Origin: Octopus sinensis
Taxonomy: Eukaryota
Assembly (NCBI RefSeq): GCF_006345805.1
Contig: NW_021833277.1
Coordinates: 16,198 to 80,197 of the forward strand
DNA length: 64,000 nt
Direction: 5' to 3'
This document shows, in pieces, positions 269 to 33,420 of the stretch (its first letter is position 1; each line of letters opens with the position of its first letter). Made by a program: the position numbers and the translations under genes. A model generated the notes under the pieces. The model worked only from the letters and a program-made list of their open reading frames with translations. It ran no database searches and was not told the DNA's origin.

Positions 269-3200
269 TTAAAATTCGTGTTGTCTAGTAGACTTTTTGA
301 ATTATTTCTGCTTGGTTTTGTAGCATACATGTCATATTGGGGTGATTGAGAAACTTCAAATCCAGATTTAAGGCAATTTAAATCGACTGCCCGAGCTTTA
401 AATTCTTCAAAAACTGTCTTCAAATTATAAATTTCCTAAAATATTTAAAATTTGAATACTTTGCCAGTCCGAATATTTTCCAACATTTCAAATAAAATTC
501 GTGCTTTTCCGTTGCTTTTAGCGGCCAATGATTTTATGTTTATTTGACAGTTTGTGAGTATTTTACCGATGTCACTCAAAAAGTGGACATCCTTGGAATG
601 TTCACCAAGTCTAGCTTAATTAGTAAATAAACTAAACAAATTGTGACATTCGGAGCAAATTCGGGAATATTGTAACATTCGTTTAGATTCAGTCGCCTCT
701 AATTGGTCCAATATTTCCAATTCAGTGTTGTCAATTTCTTGGGATATTTTGTGAATCTGTTGACGGTACAAACCAACTTCTCCAGAACTAAATGTCCCTC
801 CGTCACAGATCAGCCTACAAAATCAATTCAGAGAAAACTTGAAAGACTGTACGAGAGAATATGTTTTTTCTCTGCACTCCTGACTACACTGTTCTAAACT
901 TGTTCGAAAATTACGAAATGAAGATTTTATTGTTTTTGAACAGTTTTCCATCTCCATTTCATAATACTCGCTCACTTTTGAGAATCTAGTAAATTTCTTA
1001 GTTCTTGGCAACTTGGAAATGTGATAGGTGTTGTCCAGTATGGTCTCGAGTTTAATCACGTGGTTTTGAAGCTTGTTCACAGTATTGCACTGAGTTTCTT
1101 CTACCCGACTAAATTCTTCTGATATGTTTTTCAACAGCTCACGCACATTCCCACAAAATTTATTAAGTTGTTCATAATGTTGATTGATTTGATCTTACTT
1201 ATTTAGCATTGCAAAGCTAACCAACTCGGAATCGATAAATATCGATTTCAATGCGTTTCTGACGGGGTTTTAGTAGATTCAATTTTATTTGAAGTTCTGA
1301 TTTGACTTCCTCACTCTTTAAAATTTAATTTAAAGTAAGACCTTAAACTCTACGATATCTTTGGTTTTTTCTTCCACCTCGATTTTCCATTCAGAAAATT
1401 TACTTTTGAACAATTTTTTCAATCTTTAGAGTTATTAAAATATTTCAGACCTTTCTGCTACATCAGTAAAAAACAAGTCAGAGATTGTCAGACTTTCCTG
1501 AAAATTTTCTATCATTTTTCTTTTAATATTTTCAGTGATTGTATCTGATCTGGTCAATTGATGACTTGTTTTTCGATTTTGAAAAAATTCTGTAATCGAT
1601 CTATGAATTTCGCGTAAAATTGTCCGTATTGTTCCCGGGTAAGATTTGAGAAATTTTATTTGATTTTTTCCAAAATTTTCGTAGCTAAAAATACTAAAAC
1701 AAAATACCTTGATTTAATGTTATTCAAATATTCCACTGCCTTAGTGAAATTGTTGTTGAGCTGATCTTGTGTGTAATCCTCTCGCATATCCTCGATATAT
1801 TTTGTGATGTTATTTTCAATTTCCAAAGAAAAAAATGTAAATAATATACTTCTAAATATTCTCGATTTTCTGTTATATCACGGAGCATTGTTTGATTCAT
1901 TTCATCGAAGGATGAATTCAACTTCGTTTCTCCATTATTCCAAAGAAGGATAGCTTTTTCTGTGAATTGAACGGTTTCGGATATTTTTTTGGACATGTTT
2001 TTTTGAAATATTTTAATTTTTTTCTGAAAAAATACATTTGAAATACTTACCATCAGAACAGTTGCATCATTATTCCAAATTAAAGTTTTTCGTCTTAATA
2101 TGCTCATAAATGAATTATTAAAGTCTTCTATTCGTTGTTCTGCCTCTTCGACGGAAAAGATATTGTCCAAAGAAGTCTTTGAATTTATATGTACAACTTA
2201 CCATAAACTCGTCTTTCCTGTTTTTCATTTCTAGAATTCTCTCAGATTTTAACAAATTCAGTTCTTCTTTAAGTTCAACAAATGTATTTTCTATAAATAG
2301 TTCTTTATTATCGATGACCATATTCTTTATCAATTTCTGTAATTTGGAAGGCCGCATTTTCGGTTTGTTCGCGAATTTTATCAAATCCCGACGAACTGCA
2401 TATTTTAAATTAATCCACAATAAACCCAAGAGTTTCAAAAATGAATAAAATTTGTTTATTTATTTGAGCAAATCTATTTACATAATTTTGTAAAGTTTCT
2501 TTATATATATCATACATGTTGAATGATACGCCTTCAATTTGCTCACTACAAAGTTACACAATATATTTTACAGAAATTGTTTTATTGCAATCTCCATCTT
2601 GTCATTCCGTAAATTACTCTTTACTATGGTCCATTTTTCCAACATAATATGTTTAATCTCGATATCTCTCATTTTTAGTGCTTTTCGCACATTTTCATAT
2701 TTTTTGAGATTTGATACTACAGATAAATTGAATAACTGAATATTTAATTATGTTTCTGATACTAGTGACTTTTCGTCCAAAATATCGTCGACTTGTTGGG
2801 GGAGAATGTGTGCAATGGCGATTAGATTTTTTTTGGTTTGTGTAAATAAATCAATCATCTTTGAAAATAATAATTTAGCACATACTGATTTGAGTCGTCT
2901 ATTCTCCAATTGTTTTAATTCGTCATAAAACGATAAAATAATCATTTCTCTTTTTTCCATTAGACTTTCTAGCTGAATTTTCCGTTGAGGAAGTTGGTCA
3001 TATTCCATGTCGTTTTTCTAAATAAATATAAATTATTACTTCTTCTAGAGAATTTGAAATGTCCTCAATTTCCTTTTTATATTGATGTGATGATTCTGTC
3101 AATTTGTTGCATATTGATTTCACTTGATGGTACAATTCCTATAAATATTGAGGTAAATAGATTCTACATTCTGGATGAGGAGAGATTTATTTTCATGTTG

Positions 3201-3570
3201 CTTCAATTCGTTTTCGTGTCTGTTTATATTATAATATCGTTCACCGTTCTTTCTTATTTTCGTTATATTGTTTGATATATTTTGAAGGCATTCTTGTAGA
3301 CGGAGAATTAATTTTTGGCAACTTTTTTACAGAGTCAATATTTTCTTGTTGTTCTTTGATTAAATCACTTAAAATAATAGCAAATAATATTTCACTTATG
3401 CTGAGTCTGGATTTTCCGATCAGCAACAGTTAATATCATCTCGTTGTTCTGTAGACTTTTTTTTCTTGTCTTATACACATTTAGAGACTTAACCAAGCTT
3501 GTCTTTAAACTGTAAACATTCAAACCAACTATACTTGAGCTAAAAATAGCGGACGGTATGATTCCTCCAT
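269..3570 (-). CDS. CCDC180: CCDC180/CFAP76-like coiled-coil ciliary protein (multi-exon, 3' end approximate)
   Basis: Spliced N-terminus MEESYRPLFLAQ|TSLVKSL resembles CCDC180 YQQIFQAEVQLVHSL. The segment LIAIAHILPQQVDDILDEKSL..LFNLSVVSNLKKYENV..EKWTIVK..AIKQFL resembles its DUF4455 region. A chain of minus-strand coiled-coil ORFs is separated by short GT-AG introns. Confidence 0.7.
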
Positions 3571-19988: not shown

Positions 19989-21501
<1,513 letters not shown>

Positions 21502-22027
21502 TTACTTTTTTTGTCATTTCATTTTTTGTTGTTTATTTTTTCTAATCTGAAGATTATAGTGATTTGACTTATAATTTGCTTTGAACAAGATAATTTGAAA
21601 ATAAAAACACAAATTGAAAATCAATCGAGTTTTATTTATAATTGTCAGAAACCTGGAATGAAGTTAATGTTTCTATTTCTAGACTTTGTGGTTAACTTAG
21701 TTGAGAATCTGGACTCATTATTATTTTTATCATTCTACATAACTTCTTCGGACCCTCCTCAGAGAAGTCGGGATCACCTGATTATTTAGTTCTATGATTT
21801 TGGACGGTGATCTTGGCTATAATAATACATACTCTTCCGGGGTCCCCAGTTTTTGAAAATTATTTTTAGAGTCGAAATTTTTATCACTTGACTCCAAAAC
21901 GAAATATACAACTGAATCTATTAGTGAGATCCTAATAGTCCGATAGATTTTTTAATAGGTCATTAAAATCAGAATCATAAAAAAAGATTATGGAGGATTT
22001 TGGCAGCGGTCTTACATATAAAAGAAA

Positions 22028-22901
22028 CTAAACCGTCAAGTTGATCAAGTAGAAGAGTTCCTCTTGAGTTGAGGCATTGATTTTTAGCCAAATCGGGCTC
22101 TTTGTTCATATCACCACAGATAAAGACATTACTGAGGGAATGGAGGTTTTGTATTGAAGGGGTCCACCGTAGACAGGATGACCAGGAGGGATGTACATGT
22201 TGATCAGCCTTCTGGTTGGCGCCTGTAGAGACCGTTATAGCCGTCAGCTCAATTACAGGGTCGTTATCGATTAGTGTGTAAGCTTGTGATGTACAGTTAG
22301 AGAAAGGGATTGATTTCTGATAAGGGTTCAAAGGCCCCCGCCATTACGGAGTTCGGTCTGTCGACGGATGTATGAGTACCCGGGAAATCGGGCAGGCGGT
22401 TTTTGGGCGAGAGCTTCGTTTCCTGCACCAAAGCAATGTCCACGTCGTACTTCTCCATGAAGGAACAGAGTTCAGTGGTCTTGTGGGCGATCCCATTAAT
22501 GTTTACTTGCAGGATACGAAGTAGGTTCTTCCTGGCGGGTCCAGGGTTTTGTTCGATGTCTCCGGAGAGGAGAAGGGCGTTGGGAGTGTAAAAGAGAGGC
22601 CTTGGGAGCAACGGCTTCGCGCCTGCTCTGCTGCCACCGACGTCACGGAAGGTATCCGATTCCGACAGGGGGGGGGTTGTGGGTCTTTTGGTAGTTAATT
22701 CCATGAGAAACTATCATTGCCACCACGAGAAGGTGACCCACATCGACAAACATCCGCTGCCCTGTTCTCCTCCTGTCCGCAGGAAATTGCTGTCCACTCC
22801 CCCGAGGTCCTTTGGGAGCAACCCGCGAAGGCGCTGTTGGTTCTGCTAGCCGCCGGTCTCATACCCTAATGTGAGACCGGGGTTATGCAACAACAACAAC
22901 A
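22028..22901. mobile_element. Ingi/Vingi-like LINE insertion: inverted 5' part (-; 2A + APE) joined to 3' end (+) with (CAA)n tail, 10-bp TSD
   Basis: TSD ATAAAAGAAA at 22018-22027 and 22902-22911. Minus strand encodes LLLSGDIEQNPGP then APE (ILQVNINGI..DIALVQETKL..ICGDMN). Plus strand 22752-22901 encodes LFSSCP..PEVLWEQPAKA..*, then a 9-bp hairpin and CAACAACAACAACAA. Confidence 0.85.
22678..22750 (-). ncRNA. HDV-like self-cleaving ribozyme (ingi/L1Tc Pr77-type) at the element 5' end
   Basis: Minus strand TTTGTC GA TGTGGGTC ACC TTCTCGT GGT GGCAAT GA TAGTT..AACTA CCAAAA GACCCACA: P1 TTGTC/GGCAA, P2 8 bp perfect, P3 ACC/GGT, P4 TAGTT/AACTA, C in J4/2. It also matches the CGATGnnGGnCACCTnnnCGTGGTG pattern of ingi 5' ends. 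Confidence 0.75.
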
Positions 22902-24049
22902 ATAAAAGAAAGCTCCGACACACAAAAAACGCTTTTTCACAAAAGTGATGATAATTGTGTGTTTTAAAATGTTCTGTATTAAACGAAATATTGCTCTTCT
23001 TAGGCAATAGTTGTTTTATGTTTCAAATCAACATAAAATTAAAGAAGCATTCTCTCCGCTGATTCCAGGCCTTTCCCAAATTCCTTTCTTGCATAAAATT
23101 GACGAATTTGGTATAAATATAATTATTTCGCATAATAAACAAAACAAAAACATTTAACAAAATCATAAATTATGAAAAACACATTTTTACACAAATCATT
23201 ACAAAACCTTAATTTTAAATAACGAATTTTTATTCTCTTCAAAATTCCGAAAAAACTATATTTATTTATCTTCTCCCTTGTAAGAAACTTGATGACACAC
23301 GGCGAATCTTCAAAAAGACGGCCTGCACACAGAAACTAATAACGACACCAAAGGTCTCAAAGTCCACTAAATAAGCCAAGTTTCTCTCAGTACCGAAACA
23401 GTAAATTGGTGTCCTCAACTACCATAACACCCTTATTCTTCAAATTAAATAAATGCACTGCCAAAAAGAATTTAAAGTTCGTCTCCGCCAACGTGACTAT
23501 TTGTTGTAGCCTGAAAATTAATAAATATCCCACCATTTCCACTTCCATCCATTTTGACCCTCTCCAAAACTCTTTTGGTGGAGTAACAAACTAAACAGGG
23601 AAACTTAAAAGTGAAAATATGACTATACATTTCTAAAAAGCATTGTGGGACAGGCTCAGATGACGCCTTTACTGCATATATGAACACCATCATTATTCAC
23701 ATGAAGATAGCCTATAATTACAAGAAAACAACCTTTCTAAATATTCTACAATCTTAAAATTGATGAAGCAGGATGGGTTGGACATATTTGGGATGATGAC
23801 TTAAAGAAGTTTGAGCAGCTTTTCCAATACCTGCAATAAAATAATTTGTTTTCATTAGAAAATAAAAATTGGTTTTATTTTTTATTATATGTCACAGTCC
23901 GAATAAAATACGCTAGAAATTTAAAAAATTAGTCTGACTATAGGCTCACAAAATTGGAATGGAATTTCTATTTTGAAAATGGAAAAACATATTTTTGAAA
24001 GAATGGGCTTAATTTGCGTTTTTTCTGTGAAGATGAAATCGAATTAAAG

Positions 24050-24440
24050 TGCGTTGAGGTGCAACAATAAAAGTTAGGCAGAACATTACACTTTGGGAGA
24101 GACCGGTTTTTTTCGAAATTAAGAAATCTCAATTATGGATTGAATAGTGAAGAAATTAAAAATTTCTAAGGTGATTTCGCTTTGTGCTTTCTGTCAAGTA
24201 ATAACTCTTTTCAATAAATATTTTTAGTCGAAAAAATTATAGTATATGAAGCCTCCAATTACGCCAATCATTGCAAGGAGATGTAGAGACAGATACATTG
24301 CGGATTTAATTGACCTCAGAAGATATTCGACGATGAATGATGGCTGGGTGTGATATGTTACTAAAATAGATTTTGGTAATTGTAAATTCTTTTTCCAAAT
24401 ATGTAATGCTTGAAATGTCGGTGACCAAATCTTCTGCTGA
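24050..24440 (+). mobile_element. Decayed retroviral-type integrase fragment (Gypsy/Ginger-like)
   Basis: HFGRDR, PPITPIIARRCRDRYIADLIDLR and LVIVNSFSKY with internal stops. Confidence 0.6.
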
Positions 24441-24995
24441 AGAGATTTAAATTATGTCTGGAGTATTTCAAACTACTTAAATCTTATTTCTTTGTTGAAA
24501 TCCGGTTTGATTTACTATTTAAATATTTTAAAAATTAATCAATCATGTAATGTTATTATATAATAATTGACTATATAATGAATGTAACTTGGTTTATAAT
24601 AGACTAATACAAAAATATCTGATAATATTTCTCTCACAAGTAACATATTGATCAAAAAATAGTCAGCAAAAATAATAATACATTTACTTTTTTATTAGAA
24701 AAAGTGAGTAATAATCATTATTTTAATATAATCAAATTTCGAATTTTTATGAACAACTTTGTATTTACAGAAAATTATACCTTCCACTTTATCAACATCA
24801 TTACTATTTTTTACTGCTTATTATGTCAGTTTTTCCAAAACAGCATCTTTTAAACAACAGAAACATTTCCAAACAAATCAACAATATGTCACAAGTAATA
24901 TTACATTTGCTTCAAACACATCTAAAATAAACATTATTACATATATGATTCTTATTTACCATCGTTTATCTATCTCAGAATTTATCCTCTTGCTC

Positions 24996-25449
24996 AATGG
25001 CACGTGCTAAAAATTCATATGTCAAAAATAAAAAAATTGTCCTAATTTTTTGGTATATTGTCTACAATGATACAAAAAAAGAACACAAAAATAAGGTTTC
25101 ATCTTTCCCTGTATATATTCCCTGTCCAAAAATCACCAAGTCCTCTCAAAAAATAAAAAAACAAATAAGAGCATAATAATCAAACAAATTAGACATTTTT
25201 ATCACGATTTGTTTGCCAAATAAAGATCCTGCTCATATTGACTTCCAGAATAGTCTTCTGGTCCTGAATATAGTTGAGTCGATCATCTAACTTGCAAATC
25301 TGTCTGAGTGCTTCCTTATAATTTTTGTCTAAAAATGCTTCTGCCTCATCCAACTCATATTCCATCAATATATTCGCCTGCATCCTTTATAACACATTTA
25401 TACTCCCAGCAGTAAATACACACTCGATACTGATTCTATTCGAGCCTTT
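24996..25449 (-). pseudogene. Partial duplicate of prefoldin subunit 3 (last exon, last intron, 3' flank)
   Basis: Near-identical to 39045-39504, including the intron GTATAAATGTGTTATAAAGGATGCAG. The 5' exons are absent. Confidence 0.85.
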
Positions 25450-32486: not shown

Positions 32487-33420
32487 TGCTTTTCTATAAT
32501 TCGTTCATGTATCTTTAATGGAGAGTGGATAGCTTTTAAATACCCAAAGATTTAGTAAAGAGTCGCGGATTTGATAATGAAATTACACAAAGAACAAAAA
32601 ACTATATCAGAAGAGGGTTAGAACAAGTTTAATATTAGTAAAATTAAAAAATGTAATTATTCGGTGTCGATCATGAATTTATCATTAATGTTAATTAATT
32701 ATCATATTTAACGGCTGTTTAAAATGATTGAATATCTGAAATAAATTTTTCATTATGAATGATAAAAAGAGAATAATTATTAATCTAACTAATTTTTTTG
32801 ATTTTTGCTTTGATAAAATAGTTTGACTTGAATAAGACACAATTTCAATGGATAACTCTCAAATGCGTATTTAGTTGACTAAAAACACAATTTCATTTCA
32901 GTATCTTGCTACTAATGGGAGAGTGGATAGTTTTTAAATGCCCATTCAGTTCACTTGAATGAGACAAAATTTGTCTATTTTGTTGACCAAAATGATACAC
33001 AATTTCATTCAACTATCTTACTACTAATGGAAGAGGATAGCTCTCAATAAATGCCCATTTAGTTGACTAGAATAGCACACAAGTTGCCTATTTAGTTGAC
33101 TTGAATGAGACACGATTTCATTTAAGTATTTTACTACTAATGGGAGAGGAGAGCTCTCAATAAATGCTTATATAGCTGACTTGATTGAGACACAATTTTA
33201 TTCAACTATCTTGCTTTTCTATAATTCGTTATTCGTTCATGTATCTTTAATGGAGAGTGGATAGCTCTCAATAAATGCCTATTCAGTTCACGTGAATGAG
33301 ACAAAATTTTGTCTATTCAGTTCACTTCGGACTCTCCTTCCTACTCTCGATTAGTCACAACTAATGGGAGAGGATATCTCTTATGCCTATTTAATTGACT
33401 AGAATGAGACACAATTTGTT
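32487..33420. repeat. Degenerate mosaic tandem repeat between the 3' ends of TACC and WDR33
   Basis: Recurrent modules CTAATGGGAGAGTGGATAGCTCTCAATAAATGCCTATTTAGTTGACT and GAATGAGACACAATTT, roughly 6-9 imperfect copies. Confidence 0.8.

Follow-up and report, generated by a model that had tools for sequence, protein, structure and literature searches.

We find in a 64,000-nt stretch of Octopus sinensis DNA (the window) one dead copy of a LINE, inserted with its 5' part inverted. The LINE, which lacks RNase H, encodes an APE endonuclease and a reverse transcriptase (RT) in one frame, and short inversions in its relatives end preferentially at one place in the leader, at or inside the far part of a segment predicted to pair with the 3' end of the same element. 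This inversion hotspot together with the predicted end pairing is the new part of the finding, the ribozyme-plus-2A layout ahead of the endonuclease being known. The best explanation that we can offer for the whole, namely a dead inverted LINE with an HDV-like ribozyme, a start at an AUG at nt 8-9 (positions preceded by nt count from the first base of the element), a 2A peptide and leader/3'-end pairing, is in our judgement a probable one. We found no account of a hotspot tied to end pairing in the literature, a weak absence since subscription papers, patents and Repbase mostly lay outside the search. Known systems are described here from parts of the papers cited.

Anatomy of the inverted insertion

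Read along the window, the insert consists of nt 741 to 1 in reverse, one extra base, and nt 3214 to the tail. The inverted 5' piece (22028..22751, minus strand) covers about nt 1-741/742 of the family that we call A and matches the full-length copies L031-L034 at 96%; full-length sister copies were recovered by searching the element's own genome. The extra base at the inversion junction (22752, plus strand) is likely untemplated, and the 3' piece (22753..22901, plus strand) holds the last codons, the stop (22867-22869), a hairpin (22853-22880) and a (CAA)n tail (22888-22901). An exact 10-bp target-site duplication, ATAAAAGAAA, lies on both flanks (22018..22027 and 22902..22911, plus strand), the last base of the left copy being shared with the element as a 1-nt microhomology. 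An empty allele is also present, in that a contig of public run X1, possibly but not certainly the assembly's own sample, skips 22028-22919 and retains one copy of the duplication. Because of the exact duplication and this empty allele with a single copy, we regard the insert as a single insertion event, and as one duplication encloses the inverted 5' piece, the 3' piece and the tail, as twin priming would leave them, we have little doubt that it arose through priming from both cut DNA ends. The window's own inversion junction was not seen among the contigs listed from public runs.

The inverted piece retains the N-terminal part of the APE endonuclease (22028..22512, minus strand), frameshifted and cut off; Pfam Exo_endo_phos scores it at E 4e-4, below its cut-off, as against E 1e-10 for an intact copy. 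Over 724 nt the window copy differs from L031 by 10 substitutions and 19 indel bases, 18 of them deletions, and part of these indels may be assembly errors.

The element and its families

Family A is 3.35 kb long with a (CAA)n end and has one frame of 1098 residues, counted from the second ATG, that holds APE and RT domains; Pfam at E<=0.1 matched no RNase H within this frame in its intact form. A protein search of the genome gave 150 scored matches, and the 20 fetched at length included families C-H at about 35-43% identity. In an RT tree that contains no labelled Ingi or Vingi reference, the RT domains of the families join two database proteins (100/99), and the adjacent pair has a protein with RNase H among its members. 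By eye, the closest RT among the entries viewed of the Odon supplement (parts 3 and 4 of 51) is that of Ingi-1_AC from Aplysia, which shares NKPAG..SYRPISL and DGF....KRTVLA..D.S.AFD.V, and judged from these sequences the element likely belongs to the Ingi clade. It has no RNase H and is therefore not filed as a typical Ingi; its organisation is of the Vingi type, with a single frame, APE and RT. However, the hedgehog, amphioxus and insect entries (of which we take the amphioxus and insect ones to be Vingi) read by eye DL[ST]AA[YF]DTV against DISKAFDSV in the present element. In the parts of the sources used, the Vingi clade is likewise compact and single-framed with APE and RT and without RNase H (PMC13708176, PMC3708506), and 2A was found in Ingi and none detected in Vingi (Odon et al., PMC3708506).

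Several further features of the families were observed. In the database homologs P0002 and P0004, Cys-rich (PHD-like) fingers lie between the same 2A motif and the APE. A near-palindromic site at nt 2939-2950 of family A holds several different insertions (L032 1003-2184, L033 283-2440, L095 2393-3247, L010 1927-2531, L009 1931 and L015 1927), one of which has a frame that we take to be a hAT-like transposase. At least five tandem copies of the element's first ~12 nt precede G1 in L061/L093 (about 1440-1501 in L061), which suggests repeated template jumps at the RNA's 5' end, and L127 of family C has a single 5' duplication.

An HDV-like ribozyme fold at the 5' end

The first bases of the element form a predicted HDV-like fold at 22678..22751 on the minus strand. 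P2 (22742-22735/22685-22678), P3 (ACC/GGT, 22734-22732/22724-22722), L3 (22731-22725), TC/GA for P1.1 and J4/2 (22691-22686) are all where the sequence-only reading had put them; what it had missed is P1 (22751-22745/22721-22716), which is followed by J1/4 (22715-22714) and P4 (22713-22692). In sister copies P1 is a 7-bp helix, GTTTGTC/GGCAAAT, that starts with a G-U pair, and the window copy lacks one A of its 3' strand. A distant 5' strand of P1 upstream of 22752 was considered and dropped because that DNA is the inverted 3' piece. An HDV descriptor, hand-written after the motif had been seen, matches once across both window strands, at 22750, only if one P1 mismatch is allowed, and once in 40 block-shuffled control windows; its strict matches in 244 overlapping loci (817 kb) all parse as these 5'-end folds. 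The Rfam HDV-family models gave no match at E<=10 in 21000-25000, which contains the damaged window copy.

The double pseudoknot of P1, P2, P3, P1.1 and P4 parses fully and in the right order in families A, B and C, which also keep the G-U at P1 position 1, P1.1 and the first C of J4/2 (22691), invariant among them and predicted to be catalytic. Moreover, the boundary of the element coincides with the first base of P1, as seven of nine family-A 5' ends start at this G1 with unrelated flanks (the other two at nt 3 and nt 36), and family C 5' ends likewise start there. The fold covaries among copies: in 15 rows from families A, B, C and D (four D rows being misaligned in L3/P4), 85.8% of cells are paired against 32-54% in slid controls, with a score above 500 of 500 shuffles, and 6 of 25 pairs show compensatory change on both sides between related families. 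Taken by itself, the number of doubly changed pairs does not exceed that in shuffles (164 of 500), and the other covariation measures are inflated by relatedness. The MAFFT alignment A2, in which family C is misplaced, was left out. Between A and B, P4 differs by 9 nt. Because of the covariation and the start of the element at G1 of P1, an HDV-like fold with 2A and APE in the L1Tc/ingi layout, as the sequence-only reading had it, is supported.

From these features it is very likely that the element RNA cuts itself at nt 1, which would leave an uncapped, unit-length RNA. Some details run against a ribozyme: P3 of family C carries an A-A mismatch, and family D has a short P1 with no canonical start and conserved bases upstream of it. 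Families E and F retain the fold helices, lack the J4/2 C in the copies seen, and still transpose with defined 5' ends; combined with the promoter activity known for the L1Tc head (PMC1874656, in the part used), this could mean that the fold no longer cleaves and acts only as a promoter, a 5' protector or a translation element. We consider that quite unlikely given that A, B and C start at G1 and retain the G-U, P1.1 and the J4/2 C. The 5' ends of L133, L139 and L137, together with L135 and L141, show this E/F loss and the changes of the 2A motif in G and H given below, and are natural loss-of-function controls.

Probable translation through the fold and the 2A motif

The idea that the start codon lies inside the ribozyme holds in principle, although the ATG that had been named, at 22704 in the P4 loop (22702..22704, minus strand), is the wrong one. 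Families B, C and D do not have that ATG, intact family-A copies have it out of frame, and its being in frame in the window copy and two other copies rests on small, homopolymer-type indels. The ATG common to A-D lies at nt 9 in A/B and nt 8 in C/D (22741..22743, minus strand), in J1/2-P2, and in intact copies its frame continues across the fold as far as the 2A motif; where open frames are long, the copies read in the frame of the ATGs at nt 9 and nt 36. Among copies that keep the ATG at nt 8/9, the frame is open from it to the 2A in 1 of 5 in A, 0 of 7 in B, 13 of 17 in C, 10 of 10 in D and 3 of 6 that are D-like; in two other B copies it is open from nt 36, and in family E from nt 1 in all five copies. 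We read the closed A/B frames, which count against this start, as decay or assembly indels; no 5' indels relative to L031 were found in contigs of three runs at the 20% listing level. Since frames are open from nt 8-9 to the 2A, the ribozyme fold itself is likely coding and would be translated from the AUG at nt 8-9.

Directly ahead of the APE, as had been described, is a predicted 2A-like motif (22581-22537, minus strand), a Leu-rich tract and GDIEQNPGP (NALLLSGDIEQNPGP). The 'NA' before LLLSGD in the window copy is the product of a 2-nt deletion, the family reading QLALLLSGD. GD(V/I)ExNPGP is found in families A-F and in P0002 and P0004; one copy of G lacks the motif, and one of H has it in degenerate form. 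A 2A motif is by itself insufficient for activity according to the part of Odon et al. (PMC3708506) that we used; it would here probably free a leader of 58-70 residues from the APE-RT.

Inversions end at a hotspot in the leader

Taken together, nine of the ten duplication-flanked inversions that end within the first ~200 nt do so at nt 150-163. In A/B, all 40 matches of the 5' search contain eight inverted events, of which six are short and duplication-flanked (ends at 133, 150, 154, 154, 158 and 159) and the others are the window copy (742), whose priming site lies outside the hotspot, and one at ~153; all except the last have a duplication of 10-16 nt. All 40 family C matches gave ends at 150, 158, 161 and 163, and two more inversions with no clear duplication end at 165 and ~160. 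A possible microhomology at the outer junction measures 1 nt in the window copy and, by eye, 2-6 nt in relatives. In each of the families D (30 of 31 matches looked at) and E (24 of 24), a short event that ends at 119 occurs once, as does a long or complex one. A uniform null, with scan-window widths set after the data were seen, reproduced the clustering in 176 of 400000 simulations for A/B, 545 of 400000 for C and 0 of 400000 pooled. As the queries were 5' ends, inversions that do not reach the 5' end were missed.

Inversions left out of the statistics are those with no clear duplication (L057, L237=238=240, L243=244, L215=216 and L184), and L081, L063, L064, L067, L093 and L019 are same-direction internal deletions that were not counted as inversions. 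When family-A loci were instead picked by their 3' end, three of 32 were inverted (two events, the window copy not counted) and about five were ambiguous because of interruptions or locus edges, compared with an inversion rate of about 30% for L1 in the sources used. One X7 contig departs from the element at nt 155; as a single case among 18 of the 71 loose ends, it is too little to count. Family C also has 5'-only pieces that end at 158, 160, 162 and 301; one of these (L176 1501-1662, nt 1-162) has a 9-nt duplication and no 3' piece, and is possibly a case of primary priming at the hotspot.

Predicted pairing of the leader with the 3' end

The leader that follows the ribozyme is colinearly complementary to the last ~80-110 nt of the element, both arms lying in coding sequence. 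In the window the leader segment (nt ~110-157; 22596..22642, minus strand), whose far edge is the A/B hotspot, is predicted to pair with 22804..22856 (plus strand) inside the last codons of the frame, with an 18-bp core at 22804-22822. By alignment score, nt 82-157 with 3267-3345 in A and nt 79-183 with 3170-3278 in C were reached by 0 of 2000 shuffles each, E by 3 and F by 42; the pairing is not significant by this score in B (159 and 256 of 2000), D (168) or G (135). The true 3' end outscores all internal windows in seven of eight copies, and the gain from cofolding, which charges for local structure, ranks it above every internal window in five of seven families (A, C, E, F and G), with no support in B or D. 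By eye A and C show a double change at homologous core positions, and the A leader scores almost as high with the C 3' end (72 vs 74). On the basis of these predictions we think it reasonably probable that an end-to-end duplex forms in vivo. A metagenome search for DNA of relatives gave 78 pattern matches and 0 confirmed, and the pairing test is thus confined to this genome.

With a duplex that ends at nt 157 in A, spans 79-183 in C and has a core helix ending near 122 in D, in every family the hotspot falls on or within the distal part of its duplex; the 119 ends of D and E fall within their own, earlier helices, with one event per family. For family C we had predicted in advance ends at 165-175, which missed those observed (150-165) by 5-10 nt. 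Moreover, B is the source of most A/B hotspot events despite its non-significant pairing, and B copies have scattered private mismatches. That the duplex keeps nt ~150-165 beside the integration site, where the second DNA end would then prime most often, falls somewhat short of an even chance in our view.

A proposed route and its alternatives

Drawing on L1Tc/ingi and general LINE knowledge for the ribozyme, start, 2A and 3'-hairpin steps, we envisage that the ribozyme cut would set nt 1 of the RNA, that a ribosome would start at nt 8-9 and read through the fold, with the 2A then freeing the APE-RT, and that the 3' hairpin and tail would recruit reverse transcription. The leader would be tethered at the target site through its pairing with the 3' end, a second DNA end released early could prime at nt ~150-165 and copy to nt 1, and the copied 5' piece would be joined there to the first cDNA. 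At present we can only tentatively generalise this to Ingi-type LINE RNAs that loop through a duplex of coding sequences, in which the leader downstream of the ribozyme and ahead of the 2A pairs with the last codons, and so deliver their 5' part to the second DNA end; the duplex would then belong to the normal route to full-length copies and the hotspot would be its mis-primed by-product.

Alternatively, a protein may set the hotspot, be it an element protein on the 5' RNA or a ribosome that pauses at the 2A and shields RNA downstream; R2 protein, for one, binds 5' RNA. The end complementarity would then be incidental or serve stability or translation, with ribozyme, 2A and twin priming unchanged. 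This would fit the breakpoints in A, B, D and E, which lie about 55-65 nt upstream of PG|P, as well as the weak pairing in B and D and the duplex-based prediction for C that was off. However, in family C the distance to the 2A is about 35 nt, not 60, and in L045 both the start of the 3' piece (3282) and the breakpoint (133) lie inside the duplex, which, though a single case, is what one would see if the priming site became free through the first copying step. We consider a protein-set hotspot rather unlikely.

It is also conceivable that a separate 5' RNA of about 150-165 nt, which premature termination or cleavage at the edge of the duplex would produce, sits in trans on the full-length RNA and is copied from near its own 3' end. 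The three family C 5'-only pieces at 158, 160 and 162, L176 with its duplication and missing 3' piece, and L059, which carries the tail only, would agree with such an RNA, but the ends scatter over about 15 nt with 1-6 nt of target microhomology (by eye), like internal priming, and no terminator-like run is common to A, B and C, so that we hold it to be improbable. Post-insertional recombination between the imperfect inverted ends, or long-read assembly artefacts in a copy as rich in indels as that of the window, are very improbable, as end recombination would flip the interior and not the outer piece, the duplications enclose the whole composite, the empty allele has one duplication copy and the outer junction of inversion L100 is present in X1 contigs too.

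Comparison with known systems and significance

The sequence-only reading had suggested that the module might be unreported; in the parts of the papers used the layout is known from L1TcRz (PMC3185411), and the 2A of Ingi-1_AC is highly active (section 7 and supplement parts 3-4 of PMC3708506). That reading had noticed neither the inverted insertion nor the complementarity of leader and 3' end. Similar to the present element, L1Tc/ingi have within their first ~75 nt an HDV-like fold whose predicted cut lies at nt +1 (PMC3185411, PMC3383444, PMC4035085) and a single frame with a 2A near the N-terminus before the APE (L1TcRz lying in Pr77), target duplications are of similar length (11-12 nt in L1Tc), and in Ingi-1_AC the 2A is also 40-80 residues from the N-terminus. 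End-to-end complementarity was not found in those parts of the L1Tc/ingi papers (PMC3185411, PMC3383444, PMC4035085). The present element further differs from L1Tc/ingi in having no RNase H, a length of 2.9-3.5 kb, microsatellite tails, and a start codon inside the fold. In L1Tc the start codon lies downstream of the fold, and T. brucei ingi may start at nt 9. As described in the parts of PMC2912911 and PMC4245944 used, twin-primed human L1 is alike in its inverted 5' piece and a 10-17 bp duplication round the whole insert, and its short outer microhomology may have a counterpart here; however, the present element is non-L1, most of its middle is usually missing, and its outer end clusters at one place. 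Inversions in human cells are reported there only with L1, plus one Nimb-2_DR insert (PMC4245944). Further background is found in parts of PMC2323293, PMC3894237 and PMC5814959.

If true, a conserved end pairing that leaves its mark in genomic inversions and can be broken, restored and moved would offer direct access to how APE-type LINEs complete the 5' junction, and the leader would overlap a ribozyme, a reading frame, a pairing arm and a 2A in about 200 nt; the ribozyme-plus-2A layout taken alone is ordinary. It would also bear on RNA-only gene writers from Vingi and RTE elements, with their templates carrying both native ends and their truncated products (PMC13708176, in the part used).

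Neighbourhood of the insertion

At 21750-21827 of the window, 200 bp from the insertion, is a 3' fragment of a family E element. An AAA ATPase gene nearby, which we take to be proteasome subunit-like, has GT-AG introns of 28, 25, 23 and 27 nt (20510-20537, 20707-20731, 20985-21007 and 21211-21237, by eye), and this gene-dense, tiny-intron contig in a 2.7-Gb assembly may stem from a second organism with a compact genome; for comparison only, the mean intron of dicyemids is 38 nt in the part of PMC6736024 used. Farther along the window, 32823-33419 holds a tandem array with a unit of about 113 nt and a 33/80-nt substructure.
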